NCBI GenBank assembly: GCA_965226795.1 | Contig: CBDDDZ010000005.1 | Location: 2,336,001-2,400,000, forward strand | Source: Candidatus Latescibacterota bacterium | GTDB taxonomy: Bacteria; Latescibacterota; UBA2968; GCA-2709665 | Direction of reading: 5' to 3' | Length of the DNA stretch: 64,000 nucleotides | In this document: positions 40 through 28,535 of the stretch, one piece after another | Position numbering within the stretch: position 1 is the stretch's first letter | Layout: the number at the start of each line of letters is the position of its first letter | Notes under the pieces: generated by a model | What the model was told of the DNA's origin: nothing | What the model saw: the letters and a program-made list of their open reading frames with translations, nothing else | The model's database searches: none | Made by a program: the position numbers and the translations under genes

Positions 40-140
40 GGTTAACGGTTCTTGGCTTTACGACGTGGGCCAGTCCCAAAGGCCCATGTGCCCGCAGGGC
101 CGAGGGGCGGATGCCCCGAAGCGTAAAGCCGGTGTTAGCC
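40..140 (-). repeat. attC-like recombination site 1
   Basis: + strand GGTTAAC(40-46)...GTTAGCC(134-140); inner stem GGCTTTACG(54-62)/CGTAAAGCC(122-130); follows the 3' end of the PhyH gene. Confidence 0.8.
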
Positions 141-1251: not shown

Positions 1252-1335
1252 GGCTAACGTTTTCGCCGTGCCCGAACCGCGAAGCGGTTGCGCGAAGGGC
1301 CGTATGGCCCGTAGCCGGGCACGGACGTGTTATGT
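1252..1335 (-). repeat. attC-like site 2
   Basis: GGCTAAC...GTTATGT; stem CCGTGCCCG/CGGGCACGG; sub-hairpins AACCGC-GAA-GCGGTT and GGGCC-GTAT-GGCCC. Confidence 0.85.
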
Positions 1336-2290: not shown

Positions 2291-2378
2291 TTATAACGTT
2301 CCCGCGGGCTGCGAACCTGCGCCAGCAGGTTGCTGCGGAGGCCCGAAAGGGCCGGAGCCGCAGCCCGACGTGTTAGCT
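2291..2378 (-). repeat. attC-like site 3
   Basis: TTATAAC...GTTAGCT; stem CGGGCTGCG/CGCAGCCCG; very similar to site 12 (22980-23068). Confidence 0.88.
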
Positions 2379-3008: not shown

Positions 3009-3160
3009 AGATAACGTTCCCGGGCTATACGACGTTCCCCGGTCCGGCGAAGCCGGATTGGCGCGGCGCTTGCGTCTCTCAGCAAGCGACGTGACAAAGG
3101 GGAATGTGCCCGAAGGGCCGGAGGGAGCGAAGCGACCGGAGCGAATAGCCCGTGTTAGCA
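3009..3160 (-). repeat. attC-like site 4 (long, multi-branched)
   Basis: AGATAAC...GTTAGCA; stem CGGGCTAT/ATAGCCCG; sub-hairpins TCCGGC-GAA-GCCGGA and CGCTTGC/GCAAGCG. Confidence 0.85.
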
Positions 3161-4201: not shown

Positions 4202-5578
4202 CTACCTGCTGAACGCGTCGGGCCTGCTGGAGTCCGAGGGCCAGTACCCGTCGCGGCTCGGGTGCCAGCGCTTGCCGCACAGGTCGGAGATCACGCTCCA
4301 TTCGGGGGCGCTCAGATCAGGGTCCGGCTGGAACAGGAAGCGCTGCAGGCCGGCCCGCTCGGAGGCGGTCAGGATGCCGTGCAGGTCGCGGGCGGTCATG
4401 GGCTCGCCCCCGTGCGGACGGCGCCCCGTCGACACCCAGGCGATCACCTTGTTCACATCCCCGATGGCCTCCAGCGCTCGGCGCGTCTCGTTGTACACCA
4501 GCTCCGAGTAGAACTCCTCGGGGAACCCCAGTTCCATGTCCGCCAGGGTCTGCACCCCGGGAAGCTCCAGCCCCAGGAAGGCCTTGACCACGGCGAAGCC
4601 GTCTGCCTCCAACAGGGTCGGGTTCCAGTCCAGGACCTGCTGCACCCAGCGGGCCATGGTGCCGTAGAGGCCGTCATTCCCGCGGTGCCAGAAGTAGTGC
4701 TTGGGGAAGACGTAGTCGAAGTACTCCGCCATCTCGCCAAATTCGTGCCCGGTCAGTGACGAGAAAGCGGCGGTGCGCGGAATGCCCCCCAGCTCCACCT
4801 TCCCTCCCACTCTCTGCATCTGCGCGTGCACGGCGCGCATGAACCCCCGCGCCGCTTCGCGGCGGGCGCGCAGCCAGTACAGGGCATCCTCGTTCAGGTC
4901 GAACAGGTTCAGTGCCCCCAGCATGCCGCCGGACGCGTGGTAGCGCACCAGATCCGGAGTCAGGTTGTGGAAACGCTCGTTCAGGTGCGCCATGCCGCGG
5001 GCGACGCGCTCCACATCGGCGCCGATGGCTTCCAGGCGGTGCCGCATGCGACCGTCCAGTTCCAGTAGGGCCTTACCCCGATGGAAGGCAAGTTCGTAGA
5101 AGGTCTCACCGGGCTGGTCCAGGATGACGCCGTGGGCCTGGGGATAGGCACTGGCCAGGTCGTGCACCCCGGCGGCCACCTCGATGGCCCCGAAAGGGTC
5201 CTCCTCCTCGGCTAGGCCGCTGGTGGTACCCTGGCCCCGCTGGTAGAGCAGCCGGAGCCCGTCTCTGGAGTCGAAGATCATGATGTGCCAGCCCCGGGAG
5301 GCGGCGTTGTCGAGGAGCGCGTGGAGCTGCTTCTCCCTCTCGGGGGTGCGGGCCGTTTCCGGGGGCGGCTTGATGCCGAACGCGGCGTACACCTTTGGGT
5401 CCGCCGCAAACGAGGGGGTGAGGGTGTCCCCCCACAACGGCATGCCGGCCTCGTTCCTGAGCCACATCCGTCCCACCACGATGCCGCCCACCCCTCCCGC
5501 CTCCCACGCGTCGAAGATGCGCGGGTAGTCGTCCAGCCAGTGCTCCAGGGGATTGTGCACGAAGATCCAGGGTACCAT
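4202..5578 (-). CDS. Hypothetical 458-aa protein, paralogue of 16927-18240
   Basis: Long high-GC ORF with RBS GAGGT; shares FPKHYFWHRG and AWVSTGRRPHGG blocks with the 437-aa ORF. Confidence 0.85.
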   Translation of the reverse strand: MVPWIFVHNPLEHWLDDYPRIFDAWEAGGVGGIVVGRMWLRNEAGMPLWGDTLTPSFAADPKVYAAFGIKPPPETARTPEREKQLHALLDNAASRGWHIMIFDSRDGLRLLYQRGQGTTSGLAEEEDPFGAIEVAAGVHDLASAYPQAHGVILDQPGETFYELAFHRGKALLELDGRMRHRLEAIGADVERVARGMAHLNERFHNLTPDLVRYHASGGMLGALNLFDLNEDALYWLRARREAARGFMRAVHAQMQRVGGKVELGGIPRTAAFSSLTGHEFGEMAEYFDYVFPKHYFWHRGNDGLYGTMARWVQQVLDWNPTLLEADGFAVVKAFLGLELPGVQTLADMELGFPEEFYSELVYNETRRALEAIGDVNKVIAWVSTGRRPHGGEPMTARDLHGILTASERAGLQRFLFQPDPDLSAPEWSVISDLCGKRWHPSRDGYWPSDSSRPDAFSR

Positions 5579-5715: not shown

Positions 5716-5906
5716 TCTCGCCTCCCTTGTTTTCGGTCAATCGAATGGTTGATAATTATCTCGAGCTTTGGATTTAGGGAAGATCTGACTCGGGATTTCT
5801 CCGCTGTCGCATAAATCCAAGTATAGGAACGAGTGTTGATGGTGGGGAGGGTGGGGCTATTTTTGCACGCAATCACGGTTCTTCTGGGGGTGGTGGGGGC
5901 GATTTC

Positions 5907-6040
5907 TGCTAACTACGGTATTACCGAACAGTTACGGTAATGCGTACCTGATCCGAAGATCTGCGAACGTTCGGGAACATTCCACGCTGAAGCTTGTAGC
6001 CCGAACATGTTCAGGAATGCTTCCTATGGTGGCATCGTCT
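5907..6040 (-). other. attI-like site, copy B
   Basis: Near-identical to 23814-23947; similarity stops at the TAAC (GTT core on minus strand). Confidence 0.75.
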
Positions 6041-6295
6041 CTAATCAAAAACTGCCTCCCTTTCTTCCATCAATGCATCCAGCGGGCTCTGGATTTTCGC
6101 GAGATCCCGATTCGTCACCCGAGTATAGATCTGTGTGGTCTTTGGGCTTACGTGCCCGAGCAACACCTGGATATATCGCAGGTCCGTCCCGCGTTCAAGC
6201 AGGTGTGTCGCAAAGGAATGCCGTAGCGTCGGTATCCGCTGGACAATTTTCGCTTTCTCGCAAGCCCAGTCAAACGCGGTCTGTACCGACCTCTC
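6041..6295 (-). pseudogene. Truncated second copy of the tyrosine recombinase C-terminus
   Basis: Nucleotide match to 23948-~24208; translates ...[38 protein letters not shown]...SPLDAL; a 6-nt deletion removes the His of HxxR. Confidence 0.9.
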
Positions 6296-6608
6296 CCTGT
6301 GCTATCGGATTTCGCCAACCCATTGCGCCCAAAAAACGGGAGCAACTTAGTCGTGAAACTGAAATCCCAAGTCTCAAATATCGCCACTCACTCGAACCGC
6401 ATCCATTCAACAATATCATCGAGAGCCTTGTCTTGATAGCTCACCGCGTCCTCCCGTCCTACAAAGCCATGAACAAAATCCGTGGAGGCAGTCGCCTTCC
6501 TTGGATCATCATTCCACACGTGATACTCCCTCAGCCCAATTACCGTCGTGGGCATACACATTATACGGGCTGACAATGCACTTGAAATCCAGCAGTATGC
6601 ATAGTTCG

Positions 6609-7040
6609 TCAGTTGTCGATCAGAGCTTGCCTGATCCGTTCTGCATATGAATCCAACTCTTGATCAGGTAGACGATCTAACCACCGTGGATAAACTCTCA
6701 ATAAACCATCGTCTATCATCCTTGGGTGGATATGAAAATGCACATGGGGGACTTCCTGGTGAGCGCCTGGCCCATTGCTCTGCCATATGCTTAATCCGTC
6801 AAGCGCGAATGCTTTTTTGACGGTTTGAGAAAGTAGGATCATAGCTTTCATAATCCCGAATCCTGCTTCCTCTGACAGGGCATAGATGTCCTGAAAGTGC
6901 TCTTTGGGAATGACCAGAATGTGCCCAGGAATTGCTTGCCTTGGATCTATCATCGCGATGACAGAGTCCGTCTCGTATACAATCCTTGCGCTCTTAGTTC
7001 CTTCCACGATCTCACAGAAAACACATTTCGTTTCATCCAT
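6609..7040 (-). CDS. HIT family nucleotide hydrolase
   Basis: MDETKCVFCEIV, PGHILVIPK, HVHFHIHP histidine triad. Confidence 0.92.
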   Translation of the reverse strand: MDETKCVFCEIVEGTKSARIVYETDSVIAMIDPRQAIPGHILVIPKEHFQDIYALSEEAGFGIMKAMILLSQTVKKAFALDGLSIWQSNGPGAHQEVPHVHFHIHPRMIDDGLLRVYPRWLDRLPDQELDSYAERIRQALIDN

Positions 7041-7136: not shown

Positions 7137-7219
7137 AGTCAACGATCTCACGGGCCGTGAACCTGCGAAGCAGGTTGGGGGACGGGCGTAAACCCGAAGG
7201 CGGGGGCACGGTGTTAGAC
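7137..7219 (-). repeat. attC-like site 5 (somewhat degenerate)
   Basis: AGTCAAC...GTTAGAC; AACCTGC-GAA-GCAGGTT sub-hairpin as in sites 3, 10 and 12. Confidence 0.7.
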
Positions 7220-7255: not shown

Positions 7256-7654
7256 CTATACGAATACTGAGGGCGAGACGCCAAATCGCCTGGACAAAGC
7301 ACGTATCTGCCGGACGTTTAGCTCTCGCTTACCTTCCAGAATCTCAGAAACCACCCCTTGCGAACCCACCTCCGGCAAATCCGACTGGGTCAATTCATGC
7401 TCCTCGATGAGAAGCCGGAGCGGATCGGCGCCCTCCAACCTGGGCATGGAATGGTGTTGTTCTTCCCAAGCGTGGACAATGGTGCCCAACGTATCGAGCA
7501 GAGAATAAAGCGGATGCCGTTCATCAGTGCCTACTTCATCGATCAGGCTGTTGAGCCGCGCCAGGGCCAGGTCGTATTCCTGCTCATTCTGAATCTTGAG
7601 TAACGCACTCACTTGCGTCCAGGATCGCTGAAGCTGTGGGGTAATGACACTCAT
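7256..7654 (-). CDS. higA: HigA-type HTH antitoxin
   Basis: IQNEQEYD...LTQSDLPEVGSQGVVSEILEGKRELN; ATGA overlap with the toxin stop. Confidence 0.88.
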   Translation of the reverse strand: MSVITPQLQRSWTQVSALLKIQNEQEYDLALARLNSLIDEVGTDERHPLYSLLDTLGTIVHAWEEQHHSMPRLEGADPLRLLIEEHELTQSDLPEVGSQGVVSEILEGKRELNVRQIRALSRRFGVSPSVFV

Positions 7655-7938
7655 GTCCTCCATCCTCCACGGTCGTAGGCTTGGTGTGTAAGCACATGAC
7701 GGATGTATACTTTGCCCCGGTTGAAGTGTATAGATACAATAAGACGTTACTTGCTGCCGGCGATGTTGAACACAACGAATTCGCCGACCTTGTCGGCCGA
7801 AGGAAAGGTGTGGCGCAATGCCGCGAAACTCCCAAACTGAGTTTGCCGCATGATCTTGAACCAGCGACTCAGAGGCTTCTCGCTTTCGGGATGCCGTGCC
7901 CAAAACGCTCGGAGGGCTTTGCGTGAGATTACGTGCAC
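7651..7938 (-). pseudogene. higB: HigB toxin with an internal nonsense codon
   Basis: MHVISRKAL...VFNIAGSK*RLIVSIHFNRGKVYIRHVLTHQAYDRGGWRT*; TAA at 7747-7749 where Tyr is usual. Confidence 0.85.
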
Positions 7939-8029
7939 CTACATAATATATCGTAATAAGCGATATGCCGCAAATATCCTGCCCCGCGTCCCAATCCACG
8001 GGCCTGACTCGACGCCATTGCTGCCTTTC

Positions 8030-8129
8030 GTCTAACCTTCTGGCCACTCGCGCATCCGCGTAGCGGGTTGCCGAATGGCCGACGGAGCGTCGCGACAGCA
8101 GCGCTCCCCGATAGAGCGAAGCATTAGAG
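8030..8129 (-). repeat. attC-like site 6 (degenerate)
   Basis: GTCTAAC left end, CCGC-GTA-GCGG hairpin; right end reads ATTAGAG instead of GTTAGAG. Confidence 0.55.
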
Positions 8130-8176
8130 CGGCTGACCTTCAACGCACACCATTGGAATTTTGTCTCGCTCTGAAA

Positions 8177-14573: not shown

Positions 14574-14670
14574 TGTTAACGTTATGCCGGTTTGCGAGGG
14601 CCGAACTGACAAGGCGTTGCCGATGGCCAAGGCGGCGACCGCAGCAGCAGCGCAAACTGTGCTGTTATCT
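14574..14670 (-). repeat. attC-like site 8
   Basis: TGTTAAC...GTTATCT; stem GTTTGCG/CGCAAAC. Confidence 0.72.
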
Positions 14671-16926: not shown

Positions 16927-18240
16927 TCATATTCGGCCCCCTTCGGGTACCTCGCGCCCGCCGTCCCAGACGCCTGGCTTGTCGGTCCCCGTCGGCCAGT
17001 ACCCGTCGGCGTCTTCATCCCATTGGTTTCCGCACAGCGACGAGATGATGGTCCATTCCGCCGCCCCGAAATCCGGCTCGGGATGGTATAGGAAGCGCTT
17101 CAACCCCGCCTCCTGCGAAGCAGTCAGGATGCCGTAGAGATCGCGCGCCTGCATCGGGTCGCCGCCGTGGGGGCGGCGCCCCGTGGACACCCAGGCTATC
17201 ACCTTGTCGGGATCACCTATGGCCGCCAGGGCCCGCCGAGTCTCGTTGTAGACCACCTTGGAGAAGAATTCGTCGGGGAAACCCATCTCCATGTCCATAA
17301 GCGAGTTGATGCCAGGCAGCTCGATGCCCAACAGCGCCTTCACTACGGCGAAACACTCCGCCTCGCTCAGGGACGGATTCCACTTTCGCAATCGTCTTAC
17401 CCAGCGGGATATGGTTCCGTACATGCCGTCCATGCCGCGGTGCCAAAAATAGTGTTTCGGAAAGATATAGTCGAAATACTCCGCCATCTGACAGTAATTC
17501 TGTCCGGTGAGCGATGACCACGTCACGGCCCGCGGGATACCGCCCAACTCCACCTTGCGATCGACGGCGTCGACCTGTTGCCGCATGTACTGCCAGTCGA
17601 AGCGAGAGCGCTCCTGACGCTTGCGCAGCCAGTAGAGCACGTCCTCGTTGACGTCGAACAGGAGCATTGCCCCCAGCATCCCCCCGTCGGCGTGGTACCG
17701 CACCATTTCCGGTGTCAGATTGTGCAAACGCTCCCGAAAGTGGGTGATGCCGCGTTGTATTCGATCAATCTCGGCGCCGACCTGGGCGAAGCGGCCCTCC
17801 TCACCCGGACGGATCTCCAGGAGTTCGCCCCCGTGGTGGAAGGCAAGCTCGTAGTGGTTTTCGCCCGGACCGTCGACAATGACGCCGTGCACCTGCGGAA
17901 AGGCGTTCATTAGGTCCTGCACGTGGGCGGTCGGGCCGCCTCCGGCGAAAATCAGTAGTCGCCAGCCCCGCTCCGCGGCGTTGTCCAGCATTGCGTGCAG
18001 CTTCTTCTCTTTTGAGAGGTCGCGCGGACGCTGCTCCGGGACTTCCGCCCCCAGGGCCTCGTACACCTTCGGGTCGGGAGCCCACGCCGGAATGGTGGTG
18101 CCATCCTCCTGGAGGAATGCCATGCGGCCGACGGCCAGACCGCGCACGCCACCATCCGCCCAGGCGTCGAACCGCTCCTCGAACCCGTCGAGCCAGTGTT
18201 CGAACGGGCTGTCACTGCAGGTGAATACCCAGAGTTTCAT
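16927..18240 (-). CDS. Hypothetical 437-aa protein, paralogue of 4202-5578
   Basis: RBS GGAGG; starts 34 bp after attC-like site 9; conserved blocks shared with the paralogue. Confidence 0.85.
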   Translation of the reverse strand: MKLWVFTCSDSPFEHWLDGFEERFDAWADGGVRGLAVGRMAFLQEDGTTIPAWAPDPKVYEALGAEVPEQRPRDLSKEKKLHAMLDNAAERGWRLLIFAGGGPTAHVQDLMNAFPQVHGVIVDGPGENHYELAFHHGGELLEIRPGEEGRFAQVGAEIDRIQRGITHFRERLHNLTPEMVRYHADGGMLGAMLLFDVNEDVLYWLRKRQERSRFDWQYMRQQVDAVDRKVELGGIPRAVTWSSLTGQNYCQMAEYFDYIFPKHYFWHRGMDGMYGTISRWVRRLRKWNPSLSEAECFAVVKALLGIELPGINSLMDMEMGFPDEFFSKVVYNETRRALAAIGDPDKVIAWVSTGRRPHGGDPMQARDLYGILTASQEAGLKRFLYHPEPDFGAAEWTIISSLCGNQWDEDADGYWPTGTDKPGVWDGGREVPEGGRI

Positions 18241-18273: not shown

Positions 18274-18377
18274 CGTTAACGGCCTCGCGATACCCGACGT
18301 TGCCGGAGCGTAGCGGAGGTAATGTGCCCGGAGGGCCGAATGACCGAAGGGAGTGTAGCGGGCATCGCGTGTTAAGC
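18274..18377 (-). repeat. attC-like site 9
   Basis: CGTTAAC...GTTAAGC; stem CGCGATACCCG/CGGGCATCGCG. Confidence 0.85.
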
Positions 18378-20442: not shown

Positions 20443-21034
20443 GGCGTCGTCGGTGCGTCCTCGCTCGGATCCCAGATGGTCGCCGCGATGTGCTGCTGGG
20501 GATTCTCGGCGCTATTGAAGTAGTAGATCGTCACGAGCTTACCGTCCGGTCGTACGACCATGCGCGGATAACCCATGTCTCCGTACTGCGCCCCGTCACG
20601 GATCGCGATCTCTTCACCCCACTGGGTCCCGTCAGGGGACGTGAATCGGGCGCGTATCCCGCTCTGTTTGCCTGCCCGGTAGCCGTAGCCGCACACGAGG
20701 CGTCCGTCGGCGAGGCGGACCAAAGCCGGCGGATTGCCGTTGGAGGGGAGGTCGGGCGGGTGGGTGGCGGCGACCTTGCCCAAGAAGCGCCAGGAGACGC
20801 CGCCATATTATAGCTGGCCGCTTCTTCCCGCTGCCAGCTCTCGCCCCCGTCGCGGCTGCGCGAAAGGGCTGGGAAGGATGGTTGCTCACCACTGATTCGG
20901 TGGCCCTGTTCCTTGAACTCGTAGTCGCCGTTCGTATAGCCAACGACGATCTCGTCCGCCCAGCTCCATACCCCGTCGTTGGCCGGCCAGCCCAGGAATC
21001 GGCCTTCCTCTCCGGCTACGATAATATGCTTCAT
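20439..21034 (-). pseudogene. Sialidase/BNR-repeat protein with internal deletion and frameshift
   Basis: SRDGGESW, GNPPALVRLADGR, DMGYP motifs split over two frames near 20805. Confidence 0.7.
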
Positions 21035-21085
21035 GAGACGACCTTCATGATGGCGTACAATGTTCGGATCTTCTTTCCTCATTTC

Positions 21086-21176
21086 ATCTAACGTTTTCAC
21101 GGTTTACGAACCTGCGTAGCAGGTTGCCAAAGGCCAAGCCGCCGTAGGCGGCGAAGCGTAAACCGCTGTGTTAGAT
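21086..21176 (-). repeat. attC-like site 10
   Basis: TTCATCTAAC...GTTAGATGAA perfectly complementary; stem CGGTTTACG/CGTAAACCG; two GTA-loop hairpins. Confidence 0.9.
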
Positions 21177-21273
21177 GAAGTGGGATCTAAGCCAATGCCA
21201 AACACGCATAGATTACCGCCAGGGCTCAGCCGAGCCGTCCTCGGCGTCAGCTGCAGCCCTTGATTCGCCGGTG

Positions 21274-21741
21274 TTACTCAGGCCGCAAGTTCACTCTGTA
21301 CCGACACGTCGGCCCGAATTCTCCTGGCTCCCGTTCGGTTTCGATGGTGTCGACATACTCTGCGCCGATCAACTCACATGTTCTCCTGGATGCGAGATTA
21401 TCGGATCGGGAAGTGATTAACACCGAGTTGATCCCATGGCGCAGGGCAAGGGGAAACAGCAGGCGACAGCTGCGGGCAGCGTATCTGTTCCCGCGATATT
21501 CGTCGTCCACGTCGTGGCTCAGATTTCCTCCATACTGCTCGAGCCTTTCCGTGCACCGCGTTCTGAGGCGGATACTGCCGATCTTCACGTCGCTGCCAAT
21601 AAGCCGCATCTCGAAACGGTACTCCGGCACCCGTCCCGTGTCAGGATCAGATGGAAGCGTCTCGGTGAGGACGAGCTCAAGGTCTCCGTCGACCAAGTGT
21701 CCTGGATCGTGGAATTCACACTCGGAATTCTTTCGGGTCAT
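21274..21741 (-). CDS. GNAT family acetyltransferase
   Basis: IGSIRLR, GGNLSH, EYRGNRYA, DNLASRRTCE. Confidence 0.85.
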   Translation of the reverse strand: MTRKNSECEFHDPGHLVDGDLELVLTETLPSDPDTGRVPEYRFEMRLIGSDVKIGSIRLRTRCTERLEQYGGNLSHDVDDEYRGNRYAARSCRLLFPLALRHGINSVLITSRSDNLASRRTCELIGAEYVDTIETEREPGEFGPTCRYRVNLRPE

Positions 21742-21845
21742 CCGGTATTCTCTGCGGCCAACTTGTGATTGAACGGCGAATATGCAGTATATCTCCAGAA
21801 TATCGGGAGATACACTGCAAGACCCGACTTTACTTTTCCCATTTC

Positions 21846-21989
21846 ATCTAACGGTCAAGCACCCACGAACCTGCCCAGCTGGCACGGCGCTTGCCCCTCA
21901 CGATTCTCATCAAGCAAGCGCCCGTGACAGCGCCAGGCAGGTTCCGCGAAGGGGCGCAAGCCCCGAAGCCGGGGGTGCCGTTGTTAGCC
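21846..21989 (-). repeat. attC-like site 11
   Basis: ATCTAAC...GTTAGCC; GAACCTGCC/GGCAGGTTC, GGCGCTTGC/GCAAGCGCC, GGGGC-GCAA-GCCCC. Confidence 0.85.
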
Positions 21990-22079
21990 GATGCGGCGCG
22001 CCCCGGGTCCAGGCGCAGCCCTCAAAATGGGTCAGTCTAGCGCACACCATACACGGCCCCGCTTGGTTTTTCCTGACTC

Positions 22080-22883
22080 TCAATTGAGAAAGCTGATAAT
22101 CTCCACAGCTGATACGGAGACTACTCCGTGGTCATTGGTGACGTCACAAAATAGCATCTCCTGCTCGTTCAAAGAGGCCCTTTGGATAATTCGCCTGGCG
22201 GTGTCACAAACGACGGAACCGCCAAGAACACGGCCTTCAGGTATTGGGGTGACCTGGGAAACATAGTTGGACTGGATGACCGGCACATTGAACAATCCTG
22301 TAATCGCTTTCGCCCCCTCTCCGCACCCGTCTCGGGTCATCTCGCCATCCTGGTTCCTTTTGCTCGTCGCGACACTTGGCCACAGAATCACGTCGCTGTC
22401 CTCTAATCCTCGGCCTACCACGTGATCCAGAAAACTCGATTCGGCGCAGAAGACAGAGCCAAAAAGAATACCGTGGATGTCTACAGGAGACCGCTCCTCC
22501 GACTCTACAAAACCCCATAGTTTCTTCCAAGCCTCGATCAAGAATGTCCTGGAGCCAGCAAGTACCGGTCCTTCCCCCGGCTGCAGTAGCAACAGCGCAT
22601 TGAGGAATCCTCTCTTCGAGAGAAAGGGCGAGCCAACCAGTGTGTAAACTTCAATTTCTTGGGTAACCATGCTCAGCTCTTCCAAGCTCGTCTCGATTTG
22701 GCCGTACCAATCAGGCTCTTTGAAGAATTCGTGTAAGTGTTGATCATACCCGGTCAGCATCATCTCTGGGAAAACTATCAGCTCAGCCTCATGGGATGCC
22801 GCCCTTTGCATCCACGCTTCAACAGTCGCGGTATTTTCTTCAACTGTTGCCGACATTGCGGGTTGCATTGAACAGACTCTCAT
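22080..22883 (-). CDS. Carbon-nitrogen hydrolase (nitrilase superfamily)
   Basis: LIVFPEMMLTGY, FCAE, GGSVV; start MRVCSMQ. Confidence 0.85.
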   Translation of the reverse strand: MRVCSMQPAMSATVEENTATVEAWMQRAASHEAELIVFPEMMLTGYDQHLHEFFKEPDWYGQIETSLEELSMVTQEIEVYTLVGSPFLSKRGFLNALLLLQPGEGPVLAGSRTFLIEAWKKLWGFVESEERSPVDIHGILFGSVFCAESSFLDHVVGRGLEDSDVILWPSVATSKRNQDGEMTRDGCGEGAKAITGLFNVPVIQSNYVSQVTPIPEGRVLGGSVVCDTARRIIQRASLNEQEMLFCDVTNDHGVVSVSAVEIISFLN

Positions 22884-22979
22884 TTGATTTCTGGAAAAGT
22901 AGGGCTGAGGGGTGTCATGGTCTTGCTTTTGTGCTCCGTAACCTGGGTTGGGAGGGGTTCCGTATTCTGCGCCGCTTTC

Positions 22980-23068
22980 GCCTAACGTTCTCGCGGGCTG
23001 CGAACCTGGCGAAGCCAGGTTGCTGCGGAGGCGCGTATGCGCCGAAGCCGCAGCCCGTCGTGTTACAC
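22980..23068 (-). repeat. attC-like site 12 (closes the first cassette)
   Basis: GCCTAAC...GTTACAC; stem CGGGCTGCG/CGCAGCCCG; CCTGGC-GAA-GCCAGG. Confidence 0.9.
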
Positions 23069-23226
23069 GCTTGCGGCGCGCCCCTTCCACGGCGACGCCC
23101 GCAACGGGCTGTATTAAGTGCACACCATAAACGATGTTTTCTGGTTTTTCGTCCTGTTTCTCAGGTCAATCGGAGGCCCATCAATAGCACCAAGAAAACA
23201 CATATCTCCCGAGTTAACTTCGCCCA

Positions 23227-23721
23227 TTAAAGGGGATTCGCCTTTATGAGTTGGAAGAGGTCGCCTTTCCTGGGGCGTTCGGATGTCAAAATCTCCATCA
23301 ATCTTGCCAGGACGTCAGCCCGGTCGAAACGCTTGAATTCTGGGTACAGCCCGATACGCCAATGGAGATAACCTTCAAGCTGTTTCGGATCTGTGAAAAT
23401 CTGTTTGGCCGCCAGAAACTCTGCTTGTAAGGCACGCCGATGTGCATAGGCATGTGAGCGTGAGGCCAACTTGTGTTGAATTTCCACATGCTCGTGTAGA
23501 GCAAACAAACGCGCATACTGCTCGTTCAATTCGATTAGGTCTTCTGGGATGTAAATCGTCCCTGCTTCGTCGTAGAAAGCCAGATCGGGTGTATCGGCTT
23601 CACACCGAAACACCGCATAAGAGATGGGCGTGTCAGCTACGACTGCCTGCTCGGTGCGGATGACTGACTGCTCAATAGCATCGAACAACTCAGTGGCTTC
23701 CGGGTGTGGCAATCGGAGCAT
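23227..23721 (-). CDS. Hypothetical protein in the first cassette, HExxE motif
   Basis: ORF fills the cassette; TIYIPEDL...ALHEHVE; alternative start 23799. Confidence 0.65.
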   Translation of the reverse strand: MLRLPHPEATELFDAIEQSVIRTEQAVVADTPISYAVFRCEADTPDLAFYDEAGTIYIPEDLIELNEQYARLFALHEHVEIQHKLASRSHAYAHRRALQAEFLAAKQIFTDPKQLEGYLHWRIGLYPEFKRFDRADVLARLMEILTSERPRKGDLFQLIKANPL

Positions 23722-23813
23722 AGGTATGGCTCTCGGGTGGGGTGTGTTCAGGGTTTTTGCTTTTTGTGCACGATCTGCAGGGTGGGGTGGTTGGGCCATC
23801 CTGCGCCGCTTGC

Positions 23814-23947
23814 GTGTAACTATGGTATTACCGAACCGTTACGGTAATGCGGGCCAGATCGGAGAATTCCCGAACGTTCGGGAACATTCCACGCTGAAGC
23901 TTGTAGCCCAAACATGTTCAGGAATGCTTCCTATGGTGGCATCGTCT
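23814..23947 (-). other. attI-like primary recombination site, copy A
   Basis: GTTACAC core on minus strand; conserved with 5907-6040; contains ATTACCG/CGGTAAT IR and 18-bp palindrome TTCCCGAACGTTCGGGAA (23867-23884). Confidence 0.8.
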
Positions 23948-25080
23948 CTAACCAAAAACTGCCCCCCTTTCTTCCATCAATGCATCCGGCGGGCTCTGGA
24001 TTTTCGCGAGATCCCGATTCGTCACCCGAGTATAGATCTGTGTGGTTTTTGGGCTTGCATGCCCCAGCAACACCTGGATATATCGCAGGTCGGTCCCGCG
24101 TTCAAGCAGGTGTGTCGCAAAGGAATGCCGTAGCGTATGTATCGATATCCGCTTGTTAATATTGGCTTTCTTGCAAGCCCGGTCAAATGCTTTCTGAACT
24201 GATCGCTCGGTCAAATGCCGTCCCGGCCTTGCGCCCGGGAACAACCATGTTTCGGGTGGATATTGGCGCCTGTAGTCTTGAACCGCCTTCTGTGCGACCG
24301 CGGAGAGCATTGTGTAGCGATCCTTCCGGTGCTTGCCCTGACGAACATGAACCAGCTTTCGGTCCAGGTCGATATCTTCGACCTTTAGCCGGACCGCTTC
24401 ACCCAATCGGAGGCCTCCGGAATAGGTCAACAGGATGATCGCCCGATGCTTCAGGTTTTCTACCGCATCCAGTAACCGAAGCACTTCGGGCCGGCTCAAC
24501 ACAGTGGGCAATTTGTGCTCTTTTTTCGGACGGGGCAGGTTTTCAAGCGGATGCTGATCTTTTAACACACGGAGAAACAGGAATTTCAGTGCGCTCACGC
24601 ACTGATTGACGTAACTGTGCGAGGCTCCCGTTTCAAGGAGGTGATACACGTAATATCGGACCTCCATCTCCCCAAAAGATCGAGGTGCCTTGCCGCAATA
24701 ATTGGCAAATCGTCTGACGTGACCAAGGTAAGCTTTTCGCGCTTTTCGCGCGATACCCACCTGAGCCTCAACTCTTTTGCCATTTCTTCCAGAAACCCCT
24801 CAGGCTGATGCAGCGGTACTTCCAACCGGGTAATAGACACTGGATAAATAGATCCTGTCTCCGTGGGATCAACCCTGAACAATGTCGTCAGCTTTTCCAG
24901 CACCGCGCTTGTTCGGGGAATGCTCCAGAACCTGACAGCTGCCTCCCATCTTCGACCTGGTATCGTCTTGATTTTCTTGACACCATCCGTCGAATAAGAA
25001 AACCGTACGAAAAGACGGCCGTTCTTACCAGGAAACACGTGAGCTTTGGGTTTGTGCGATTTTGGATGTGGATACTCCAT
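23948..25080 (-). pseudogene. Tyrosine recombinase/integron-like integrase (HARP-like + SAM-like + catalytic domains), frameshift near 24760
   Basis: [34 protein letters not shown] all intact; N-terminal frame MEYPHP...ELRLR with RBS GAGGAG. Confidence 0.9.
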
Positions 25081-25546
25081 TGAGGTCTCCTCTCGGCATT
25101 GCAACTGAAAAAAGTGGATTGGCTTTGCTTTCAAACAAATCCCGTGCCGTAGAGACCGCCAATGGAGAACATTAAACGAACCTATTGTGAAACGGCGAGT
25201 TACGTGTTTCGTGTGTCAGATGGGAGAATATCCTTTTTTTACAGACCTTTCAGGTTGCTTGTTTGTTTCAAAACAGACCGTTCAACCCATCCAGAAAGTA
25301 CCATCCGAAGCGCCGCGAATATGAACCCGTAGCATTTCCAGGTCCTCGTATCGCCCCAAAACGACGTTCGCGGAACGGTTGGGAAGTTCGATATGTTAAG
25401 AAATCCGGACATATTAGATTTCCAAAACTGCCAGGAAAAGCGCCGATCATTCGCACGTCACCGGGAACGGAATTCCGGATCCCGTCGGCTGGCGCCGGGA
25501 TGCCTAAAGGAGCGGGCTTCTTTCGATTTCTCTTTTACAGCAGGCG

Positions 25547-26408: not shown

Positions 26409-28535
26409 ATGCGTCTACAATCCGAAATCCTGGCGGTCGAACTGGTGGACGGCAACCGGATGGCGCATTATACCCGCGCCGGACGCGAGACCCATCCTTT
26501 TTCGCCCTGGTTGCTTGTCGAAGCACCGGAAGAGTGCGACAGGGCCGGCCTCTCCGGCGTCCAAAAAATAACGCGTCTCAAGGGCGGCGGTCAGCTTCGG
26601 TTTCTCGTCCACTTCCACTCCTGGACCGATTATCTGGATGCCCGGGGACAACTGTCCGCGGACGGCATTGCCCATTTCGACTTCAATAATCCGGTTAAAC
26701 AGCACCTGCTGCTTTCCGGTAACACGCTTTTTCGGGGCCTGCGTTACAACGACGTCCACCGCCTTCAACTCGATATCGAGACCACCGGCCTGGACCCGGA
26801 AGCGCCTGGCGCACACATTATCCTGGTCGCGCTTTCCGACAACAGGAACTATGAGGAAGTGCTCGGTACCCGGGAGATGTCCGAAGGCGCACTCCTGGAG
26901 GTCCTCAATCAGCGCATTCGGCGCCGCGACCCCGATATCATTGAAGGCCACAACATCTTTGACTTCGACCTCAACTACATCCAGGTTCGCGCCCGGGCCC
27001 TCAACATCAGCCTGACCTGGGGTCGGGACGGCTCCGAACTGAAAGCCGGGAACGGGTTGCGCCGATACCGGGTCGGCGCCCGCAGTCGCACCTTTCGTCC
27101 GGCCTACATTCACGGCCGCCACATTGTTGACACCTATCACCAGGTGCAGCGATATGACATAGGCGGGCGCCTGGAGAGTTATGGCCTGAAGAACGTCGTT
27201 CGTGCGCTCGGCCTGGAGCGCGCGGACCGTGTCTTCGTCGAGGGGGCCGACATCCAGCGAATCTGGCGTAGCGATCCGGGCAAGGTGGTGAACTACGCGC
27301 TGGACGACGTCCGTGACGTTCACGCGTTGAGCGAAATTGTCGCCACCACCGAATTCTACCAGACCCAGTTGCTGCCGTACCGGTTGCAGGACGCCGCCAT
27401 GGCCGGGCCGGGCGAAAAGATCAACGCCATGATGATCGGGTCCTACCTCCGCCGGGGGCTGGCCGTTCCGCGGCCTCAGCACGAGCAGTCGTTCGGGGGT
27501 GGATATACGGCACTGTTCGCCTCGGGCATTTTCAGCCGGGTGGTCAAGGCCGACGTGGAGAGCCTTTATCCCTCCATTATGTTGAATTACGGTATACGAC
27601 CCGCATCAGACACCGAGAACGTATTCCTGCCCATGCTGCAGCGCCTGGCCCGGCGACGTCTCGACGCCAAATCCCGTCTCAAGGAAGCCACTGCCGATGC
27701 CGACCGATCCTACTGGGACGGCCTGCAGGGCAGCTACAAGATTCTCATTAATTCCTTCTACGGATACCTTGGGTATGGCCAGGCGAATTTCAACGACTAC
27801 AAGGCGGCGGAACAGATCACAACCCGTGGCCAGCAGATTGCCCGGCAGGTTGTGACGATGCTGCGGGAAAGAAAGGCCCGGCTCATCGAGGCGGATACCG
27901 ACGGCGTTTATTTCGTGGTACCCCCCGGAATCGACACGGAACGGGAAGAACATCTTTTCGTGGAAGCGTTGTCCGAAGAATTGCCCGAGGGCATCCACCT
28001 ATCCCACGACGGCCGGTACCGGCGTATGATCAGTCTCAAAGCCAAAAACTATATTCTGGTCGATTACGACGGGCGCCTGATCATCAAGGGCAGCAGTCTG
28101 CGAAGCCGGCGCGACGAGCGTGTTTTCCGTGAGTTTGTCCGGAAGCTGGCCCCGCTGCTTGTCAACCGACAGTCCGATGCCGCGTCGGCGCTCTACATGG
28201 AATTCGCCCACCGCTTGAAGGCGGGTCAATTCGATCACAGAGAATTCTGCCGCAGGGAGAGCATTACCAAGAAGACTTTTTCGAATCCCAACCTGCGTCG
28301 GCTGGCCGCAGCCGCAAAGGGATGTGAAGTGGGCGACAGGATTGCCGTGTACCAGAGAAACGACGGCAGCCTCGCGCGAATTGAAACCTACGCCAATGAC
28401 GAAGACAGGGGCTATCTGCTACGGCGACTGCACGATATGGCCGGACGCTTCCGCGGCCTCTTCGACGAAGCCGAATTCAATCGGCGGTTCCCTCTCCTGA
28501 AACCATCCGCGGGTGAGCAACTCAGCCTCTTCTAG
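26409..28535 (+). CDS. polB: Family B DNA polymerase with 3'-5' exonuclease domain
   Basis: LDIET, GHNIFDFD, YALDD exo motifs; DVESLYPS, KILINSFYG, ADTDG polymerase motifs. Confidence 0.92.
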   Translation: MRLQSEILAVELVDGNRMAHYTRAGRETHPFSPWLLVEAPEECDRAGLSGVQKITRLKGGGQLRFLVHFHSWTDYLDARGQLSADGIAHFDFNNPVKQHLLLSGNTLFRGLRYNDVHRLQLDIETTGLDPEAPGAHIILVALSDNRNYEEVLGTREMSEGALLEVLNQRIRRRDPDIIEGHNIFDFDLNYIQVRARALNISLTWGRDGSELKAGNGLRRYRVGARSRTFRPAYIHGRHIVDTYHQVQRYDIGGRLESYGLKNVVRALGLERADRVFVEGADIQRIWRSDPGKVVNYALDDVRDVHALSEIVATTEFYQTQLLPYRLQDAAMAGPGEKINAMMIGSYLRRGLAVPRPQHEQSFGGGYTALFASGIFSRVVKADVESLYPSIMLNYGIRPASDTENVFLPMLQRLARRRLDAKSRLKEATADADRSYWDGLQGSYKILINSFYGYLGYGQANFNDYKAAEQITTRGQQIARQVVTMLRERKARLIEADTDGVYFVVPPGIDTEREEHLFVEALSEELPEGIHLSHDGRYRRMISLKAKNYILVDYDGRLIIKGSSLRSRRDERVFREFVRKLAPLLVNRQSDAASALYMEFAHRLKAGQFDHREFCRRESITKKTFSNPNLRRLAAAAKGCEVGDRIAVYQRNDGSLARIETYANDEDRGYLLRRLHDMAGRFRGLFDEAEFNRRFPLLKPSAGEQLSLF

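Follow-up and report, generated by a model that had tools for sequence, protein, structure and literature searches.

An attI-type site beside an insertion-less tyrosine recombinase heads a probable integron-like cassette platform in Candidatus Latescibacterota

In the chromosome of a Candidatus Latescibacterota bacterium, positions 23817-23947 of the 64,000-nucleotide stretch analysed here (hereafter the window) are very probably the primary recombination site, of attI type, in an integron-like cassette platform. The cognate enzyme most likely belongs to the family of the adjacent tyrosine recombinase, which does not possess the insertion specific to integron integrases (IntI). This reading is supported by a conservation break at GTTA in 12 copies, by partner swaps at this point in contigs of other populations, by covarying attC-like hairpins confined to one strand, by complementarity of the triplets that flank the cassettes, and by recurrence of the arrangement in relatives, including other genera and a metagenome locus (L089). 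A primary insertion site had already been proposed in an initial annotation made from the sequence alone, and the same evidence upholds that proposal; absent from it were the non-canonical nature of the integrase, the frameshift in its gene, and the position of the second copy of the site in the middle of the array. The coordinates of all features are given in Table 1.

Table 1. Features of the platform in window coordinates (C5, contig coordinates of the same genome)
Feature	Position	Strand	Remarks
attI-like site	23817-23947	-	from integrase stop codon to GTTA junction, read on integrase strand; 131 bp
Exchange point	23817-23820	-	GTTA on integrase strand, TAAC on + strand
Second attI-like copy	5910-6040	-	within array
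Integrase 3'-end remnant, 84 codons	6041-6295	-	adjoins second attI copy
Unit A, ATTACCG (23827-33) / CGGTAAT (23842-48) inverted repeat around AACCGTT	23827-23848		present in 7/12 copies by AAC-N0-2-GTT criterion
Unit B, perfect 18-bp palindrome TTCCCGAACGTTCGGGAA	23867-23884		direct reading
Unit C, third unit CCCAAACATGTTCAGG, imperfect palindrome (G/A)AACATGTTC	23907-23922		reading and 12-copy alignment
Hairpin immediately 3' of stop codon, ATGCTTCC-TAT-GGTGGCAT	23924-23942		direct reading
Tyrosine recombinase, SAM-like and catalytic part, 270-aa ORF	23948-24760	-	PF00589 and PF13495
N-terminal part in other reading frame, HARP-like domain	24595-25134	-	MEYPH... start at 25080; comparison with intact L037
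Frameshift zone	24740-24768	-	two extra bases relative to G013 relative, near 24742-24765
Cassette 1	22980-23816	-	leader 23727-23814, 190-aa ORF of no known family, attC 22980-23068; junction CAC pairs with GTG of own attC
attC-like site	22980-23068	-	closes cassette 1
attC-like site, cassette 2 (CN-hydrolase; Pfam CN_hydrolase)	21846-21989	-	R2 51.6 bits, E 3e-12
attC-like site	21086-21176	-	R2 62.9 bits
attC-like site	18274-18377	-	R2 37.7 bits
attC-like site	14574-14670	-	R2 38.0 bits
attC-like site, terminates in GTTG	7137-7219	-	R2 45.5 bits
attC-like site closing cassette(s) behind second attI	3009-3160	-	R2 39.8 bits
attC-like site	2291-2378	-	R2 90.7 bits; ssDNA fold -27.3 kcal/mol, z -3.5
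attC-like site	1252-1335	-	R2 89.8 bits; fold z -3.4
attC-like site	40-140	-	R2 40.4 bits
Leader copies	23727-23814, 5816-5906, 2891-2981; C5:2335950-2336040, 2333098-2333190, 2320131-2320223, 2314844-2314937, 2214650-2214735

Conservation break and exchange of partners at GTTA

The two copies of the site in the window are identical at 119/131 positions in an alignment without gaps, and the 60 bases to the left of their TAAC (23817-23820 and 5910-5913) agree at 18/60 positions, which is the random level. It is therefore confirmed that the copies diverge exactly at TAAC, and the junctions quoted in the initial annotation, cgtg followed by TAACTATGG... at 23817 and ctgc followed by TAACTACGG... 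at 5910, are correct. The near-identity on the other side is borne out as well, with the repeat being longer than claimed: it reaches into the terminal part of the integrase gene (23948-24208 versus 6041-6295, with 180/188 identical in the first 188 bases), so that copy 2 is joined to a remnant of the integrase only and not to a gene. Each copy is followed by the start of a different cassette, as had been noted, with the nuance that both cassettes open with the extended cassette-side box GTTA-nnn-G-M-M-A-K and have a leader motif of ~70 nt in common. Positions 6296-6610, which separate the HIT cassette from the integrase stub, contain neither an attC half nor any other trace of the origin of copy 2.

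Three more genomic copies, at C5:2214737, 2285123 and 2292257, are all on the + strand and each begins at TAAC. Together with seven copies in relatives (two in G013 and one each in G003, G038, L037, L038 and L042), the five copies of this genome make up a 12-row alignment that spans at least six genomes. An alignment of the 3' flanks of homologous integrases had been suggested as a check in the initial annotation; conservation in the 12 copies runs up to ...CCGTAGTTA and breaks at GTTA, beyond which the sequence differs copy by copy, the exception being G003, which carries the same junction and cassette as the copy at 5910. The additional copies in this genome (the one at 5910 with its integrase stub and the three outside the window) look like relics of further platforms or of rearrangements.

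For the population check, Logan contigs of four sequencing runs were aligned to positions 20800-25200; as these are contigs and not reads, they give no frequencies or strands. In two contigs from run X1 and one from run X16, the attI side is aligned rightwards from 23817 and is joined leftwards to other sequence, which in one of the three reads as a cassette of G013. Conversely, X1 record 4 and X16 record 21 contain cassettes 1 and 2 up to 23820, followed by 35 letters that do not align to the window, and X14 record 12 spans the junction with 0 differences. Since the X1 and X16 contigs diverge at 23817 from one side and at 23820 from the other, the partners are swapped within the four bases 23817-23820. 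Different genomes and populations carry different cassettes at the same junction, and GTTA contains the point of exchange.

If the integrase 3' end and spacer had simply been duplicated as a segment, with an edge falling on TAAC by chance, this would agree with the presence of only two copies in the window and with the entry of the repeat into coding sequence. The position of the break is more than chance, since these four bases also delimit three further genomic copies and seven in relatives, with different neighbours, and contigs of other runs break there too; such a duplication is thus extremely improbable.

Cassette array and attC-like hairpins

The sites that close the cassettes were detected with a covariance model (R2) that was made from three hairpins of a direct-repeat family and one more, was then rebuilt from 31 matches, and is thus trained on this genome. 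In the genome-wide search at E<=0.01, in which 150 of 3509 candidates were scored, 29/29 matches were on the minus strand of C5 at 2205825-2359068, downstream of the attI-like site. When 204 kb was searched fully at the same threshold, 35/35 matches were again on the minus strand, ten of them within the window, and zero matches at E<=0.01 were obtained in the 38.9 kb beyond the integrase. No fewer than 35 attC-like sites are thus spread over 154 kb, with five attI copies in one chromosome. Because no match to the attC model occurs over 68.7 kb (C5:2211758-2280445), at least two arrays are suggested, the smaller being headed by the attI copy at 2214737. In the window, no Rfam matches and no tRNA genes were found. 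Three home-made hairpin scans were discarded, as they did not separate array from non-array DNA and their positive control gave 4 matches in the array versus 5 outside.

The attC-like sites are 67-152 nt long and follow the consensus 5' ACKTC-nnn-TAAC-A-CG... and 3' ...(R)(R)AAC-GTTA-nnn-GMMAK. All of them end in GTT; TAAC and GTT occur exactly at the model positions in 27/39 sites, which were used for the logo, and A follows GTT in 23 of these 27. As single-stranded DNA, the sites fold with z of -3.4 to -4.7, and in their alignment, itself fitted to the covariance model, paired cells make up 87.2% and two-sided changes number 111 against 37.7 +/- 7 in shuffles, with 0/500 shuffles reaching 111. 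Two features set them apart from the attC sites of integrons: pairing of the R box reaches ~12 bp (ACKTC-nnn-TAAC with GTTA-nnn-GMMAK), and an asymmetric 1x5 loop lies beside it, differing in form from the unpaired spacer of canonical attC.

The triplet after GTTN and the one preceding TAAC in the next attC are complementary at 86/77/77% in 22 adjacent pairs less than 1500 bp apart, against 31/32/27% in 1673 non-adjacent pairs. Three attI junctions pair at 3/3 positions, namely 23817 (CAC/GTG), 5910 (GCA/TGC, the latter from TGC-TAAC of the attC at 3009-3160) and C5:2285123 (GCT/AGC), and those at C5:2292257 and C5:2214737 pair at 0/3 and 1/3 with the next detected attC. Being complementary to the TAAC-side box of the same cassette, the bases 3' of GTT are cassette-derived, as in integrons. 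The pairing is silent on which strand is exchanged, since each gene is flanked by identical triplets whichever polarity is assumed.

The cassette ORFs are all on one strand and of varied kinds, including GNAT, sulfatase, HAD, MBL-fold, Kelch, HIT, SET, PIN and PhyH proteins. Two of them, with 458 and 437 aa (4202-5578 and 16927-18240, minus strand), are paralogous, their DNA being 73-76% identical in three blocks, and neither has a Pfam match. PIN and HTH_3 cassette ORFs at 1615-2100 and 7256-8143 (minus strand) may represent toxin-antitoxin-type cassettes, as in large chromosomal integrons.

In eight cassettes, a leader of ~70-90 nt follows right after the junction (GMAA-nn-GGCGCARG ... CCAACCACCCC ... 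AATCGTGCACAAAA). It is present at 3/5 attI junctions versus 5/~39 attC junctions, and nhmmer found no further copy elsewhere in the genome. The leader may act as a promoter or as an element of the 5' UTR. A match at C5:2333157, considered as a paralogous cassette, was rejected, as the common part is only the ~40-70 nt of the leader.

Sequence motifs within the 131-bp site

The elements that the initial annotation described within the site (the ATTACCG/CGGTAAT inverted repeat, the 18-bp palindrome, a third unit, and a spacing of about 40 bp) were all found in place, with centres 38-40 bp apart. Across the 12 copies, AAC-N0-2-GTT units number three in 4 copies, two in 4 and zero in 4, and in L038 the palindrome is kept through a two-sided change from CGAACGTTCG to CGCACGTGCG. 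The strict pattern CGAAC-N0-2-GTTCG occurs in the window only in the two attI copies; its enrichment is not significant when taken alone, at least two matches being obtained in 12/100 shuffles. The half-sites are separated by 0-2 bp, and the nearest AAC is 17 nt from the crossover GTT. The hairpin after the stop codon forms a perfect stem, GATGCCGCC-ATA-GGCGGCAT, in the G003 copy.

Units A-C are putative accessory integrase-binding sites. Single-strand folding of the attI-like sequence is no better than that of shuffles (z +0.16 and -0.27), and a promoter and terminator scan, whose coverage does not extend to the promoter types of this phylum, found nothing in the site and a lone sigma-70-like site inside the gene. 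In attI1, the layout consists of L and R boxes plus DR1 and DR2, whereas AAC-N0-2-GTT palindromes 38-40 bp apart are seen here. For the L/R boxes of attI, a spacing of 4-5 bp is described (PMC12614218), from which the half-site layout of the present site differs.

Recombinase gene

The recombinase gene and the cassettes share one strand, and the attI-like site lies directly 3' of the stop codon of that gene. The protein scores 206 bits against the IntI profile TIGR02249, whose cut-off is 265, with the match being split into two stretches and model positions 175-234 unmatched; against an XerD model it scores 181 bits. Its closest relative of solved structure is VchIntIA (2a3v; E 5e-41), in which residues 170-240 are opposite residues 153-181 of the recombinase, such that ~42 residues are absent at the IntI-specific insertion. 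In addition, helices H260-273 and H291-304 follow one another with no helix in between in an AF2 model of an intact relative. Profile, alignment to 2a3v and model thus agree that the I2 region, the additional domain specific to IntI, is absent. A separate Xer gene is present at C5:2887950.

In the intact 376-aa relative L037 (82% identical), both parts of the protein are encoded in a single frame, whereas they are in different frames here. The frameshift region is reproduced with 0 differences in the X14 contigs, one base is missing at 24742 in X1, and the N-terminal part has been lost in the 97%-identical G013 relative. Decay of the integrase gene was also observed across populations (24118-24511 and 24742-24768), with a 392-bp internal deletion whose joint is present in X1 and X16, and with a 5' part that has been replaced in G013 and X16. 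Since the integrase gene is frameshifted here, the platform is probably sedentary now. Past the integrase, an ORF of 708 aa at 26409-28535 (+ strand) reads like a family-B DNA polymerase, with a DTDG motif in its translation.

The N-terminal 75 residues are predicted to adopt a beta-beta-alpha-beta-beta-alpha fold (pLDDT 82-90). Matches to the HARP family (Pfam PF07443) are weak, with E 0.016 for L037, E 2e-4 for L039 and, for P0089, 26.7 bits (cut-off 25). Structure searches were likewise weak: Foldseek gave the XPB N-domain (E 0.1, the best) and 4o66 (E 0.14), and the VIA scores, all inside the noise range of that tool, were Z 4.7 for UvsW-N (rmsd 2.2, 59 aligned) and Z 3.6 for 4o66 (rmsd 1.7, 44 aligned), with a best Z of 5.1. 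A weak resemblance to MotA-C was also noted.

Distribution of related recombinases and attC-like sites

Canonical IntI was found neither in this genome nor in 14 other genomes of the genus, and is present above the NCBIfam cut-off in 17/168 Latescibacterota genomes. R2-type attCs are more widespread, being identified in 64/151 genomes of the phylum. It may be supposed that a canonical IntI acting in trans, either lost or residing in other community members, built the array, with the insertion-less recombinase as a bystander and the 131 bp as its 3' UTR or terminator. Besides the occurrence of canonical IntI genes in the phylum, this explanation can draw on the report that the IntI-specific domain is necessary for integrase activity, as one study is said to have found, and on the other genomes of the genus, of which 13/14 have kept R2-type attCs but only 3/14 any piece of an integrase (E<=1e-40).

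The neighbourhoods of the two kinds of integrase argue in the other direction. Within 8-kb flanks, R2-type attCs occur at 18/27 insertion-less integrase neighbourhoods versus 0/12 canonical IntI neighbourhoods, in a comparison of mutually related genomes by a model trained on this one; the remaining 9/27 have no R2 match. An earlier search of 1.5-kb flanks at 24 canonical IntI loci gave 0 matches, but these flanks were too short to count and were replaced by the 8-kb ones. In G017, the attCs follow insertion-less genes (L170 and L184), and no such attCs were found in the 17.6 kb adjacent to its canonical IntI with filters off. Furthermore, the attI sequence varies in step with the lineage of the integrase, and its position after the stop codon is constant down to 55% identity. 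In one study, attI sites are reportedly recognised by no integrase other than the cognate one (PMC2095811). A canonical IntI in trans is thus an unlikely builder of this array, and the cognate enzyme most likely belongs to the family of the adjacent recombinase.

For the 18 attC-bearing neighbourhoods, the array lies downstream on the same strand in 10, which include all members with the N-terminal domain that have matches; upstream and divergent in 7, whose integrases have 320-330 aa and no N-terminal domain; and convergent in 1. One-sided arrays were found in 9/9 same-strand cases with upstream coverage. L171 (G016:C1:1716000-1732000) is an exception to one-sidedness, in that its minus-strand integrase (54% identical) has plus-strand attCs to either side. 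The 320-330-aa insertion-less integrases without an N-terminal domain L177-L180, L183 and L185 (from G107, G102, G106, G105, G101 and G103) form a sister group, and they head attC arrays of the same type in the classical divergent orientation.

The whole design is repeated in the metagenome relative L089 (55% identical, ~47% G+C), in which the stop codon is followed by 67 nt and GTTA-TGT-GAAAT, and the subsequent attCs of 129-133 nt have pairing ACA-TAAC and TGA-TAAC. For metagenome loci selected by N-terminal coverage, by >=50% identity or by an R2 match, the junction-motif count is 8/19. Among ~77-80 broader metagenome relatives, the downstream junction motif was seen in 8 cases on the same strand versus 8 on the opposite strand; in the absence of a strand preference in this broad set, the rule is confined to the closer, N-domain-bearing subgroup and does not apply to the whole family.

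Relation to known recombination systems

As in integrons (attI1, attIVch), the site is located beside an integrase at the head of a one-way array, has only GTT(A) in common with the cassette sites, and is followed by bases that come from the cassette and pair with the inverse core. It also resembles attI in being a double-strand-type site with no single-strand folding signal and with inverted half-sites of integrase type. It differs in that the enzyme has no IntI-specific insertion and in that five attI copies exist in one chromosome.

An integrase on the cassette strand, with attI right after its stop codon, is a likeness to the reverse integrons of Treponema and to archaeal integrons, where the arrangement is already on record (PMC9668308, PMC4889954). 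The integrases of those systems are described with the IntI additional domain (PMC9668308), whereas here this domain is absent and intact relatives add an N-terminal HARP-like domain. The array would be filed as a CALIN by a tool that demands the IntI-specific profile, and most genomes of the genus do keep attCs without an integrase; unlike in a CALIN, an attI can still be recognised here and is tracked by a recombinase lineage.

With the Xer recombinases acting at dif and pdif, the enzyme shares an Xer-like catalytic core. Those sites are 28-bp XerC/XerD sites of alternating orientation, whereas the sites here are long hairpins in one orientation that have only GTT in common with attI.

The recombinases encoded upstream of IS91 transposases are related to the present one (45-51% identity) and likewise have no IntI insertion. 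Identical 314-aa relatives of this kind occur in six copies in G020:C1 and three in G017:C1, directly upstream of IS91-like transposase genes, and several lie within a few kb of R2-type attCs, which suggests that IS91-linked elements target or ride on cassette arrays. The recombinase and the 131 bp might accordingly be what is left of one end of a mobile element inserted in the array, for example an IS91-type element targeting attC, with TAAC as the terminus of the element. The location of copy 2 (5910-6295) in mid-array beside a truncated gene would fit an origin of this sort. A transposase gene starts only after the 314-aa relatives L014 and L028, whereas no transposase or remnant is found 3' of the gene here and cassette 1 begins 131 nt past the stop codon. 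In a quick tree, the IS91-linked recombinases, which are multi-copy and have no N-terminal domain, form a clade (SH-aLRT 99) separate from the attI-linked clade (98) and from canonical IntI (99), although the mutual order of the three is not fixed. Had an element inserted into an array, attCs would be expected to either side of it, whereas the array is one-sided here and in the 9/9 same-strand neighbourhoods, and the bases after GTTA pair with the attC of the next cassette. An element end is therefore very unlikely, and the attI reading is retained.

Proposed mechanism and implications

On the minus strand, the platform consists, in this order, of a recombinase gene (25080 to 23948), a 131-bp attI ending in GTTA, and the cassettes. 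An attC-like hairpin closes each cassette, with the general form 5'-nnnTAAC-A-stem...stem-(R)(R)AAC-GTTA-nnn-GMMAK. If the analogy with integrons applies, the recombinase may bind double-stranded attI, with units A-C as core and accessory sites, pair it with a folded attC, and exchange one strand between G and TT, the product of the exchange then being resolved by replication.

The I2 insertion of IntI has been held to be necessary for recombination of folded attC sites, and its gain is the accepted step from Xer-like recombinases to IntI (PMC4792948, PMC7790495, PMC4889954). Close to attC sites, Cury et al. found few recombinases that lacked the IntI region, and they judged these not to be IntI. 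In the literature searched, no description was found of insertion-less enzymes or a HARP-like domain linked to attC arrays. Integron integrases have been both defined and searched for by the very insertion that is absent here.

It is possible, if tentative, that a second integron lineage independent of I2 exists, in which a recombinase that, in the quick tree, is placed beside the IntI clade and outside the canonical Latescibacterota IntI clade takes up cassettes by way of folded attC sites, at an attI that follows its own stop codon. In such a lineage, an N-terminal HARP-like, structure-specific DNA-binding domain might replace the I2 helix in hairpin recognition, and the lineage might be widespread in uncultured phyla, missed by integron finders and filed as integrase-less. 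The 131-bp attI, the attC-like hairpins of 80-150 nt and the 376-aa enzyme provide a set of substrates at hand for asking whether I2 is required, what replaces it and which strand is used. Many "CALIN" arrays in uncultured phyla may have an integrase that has gone unrecognised.
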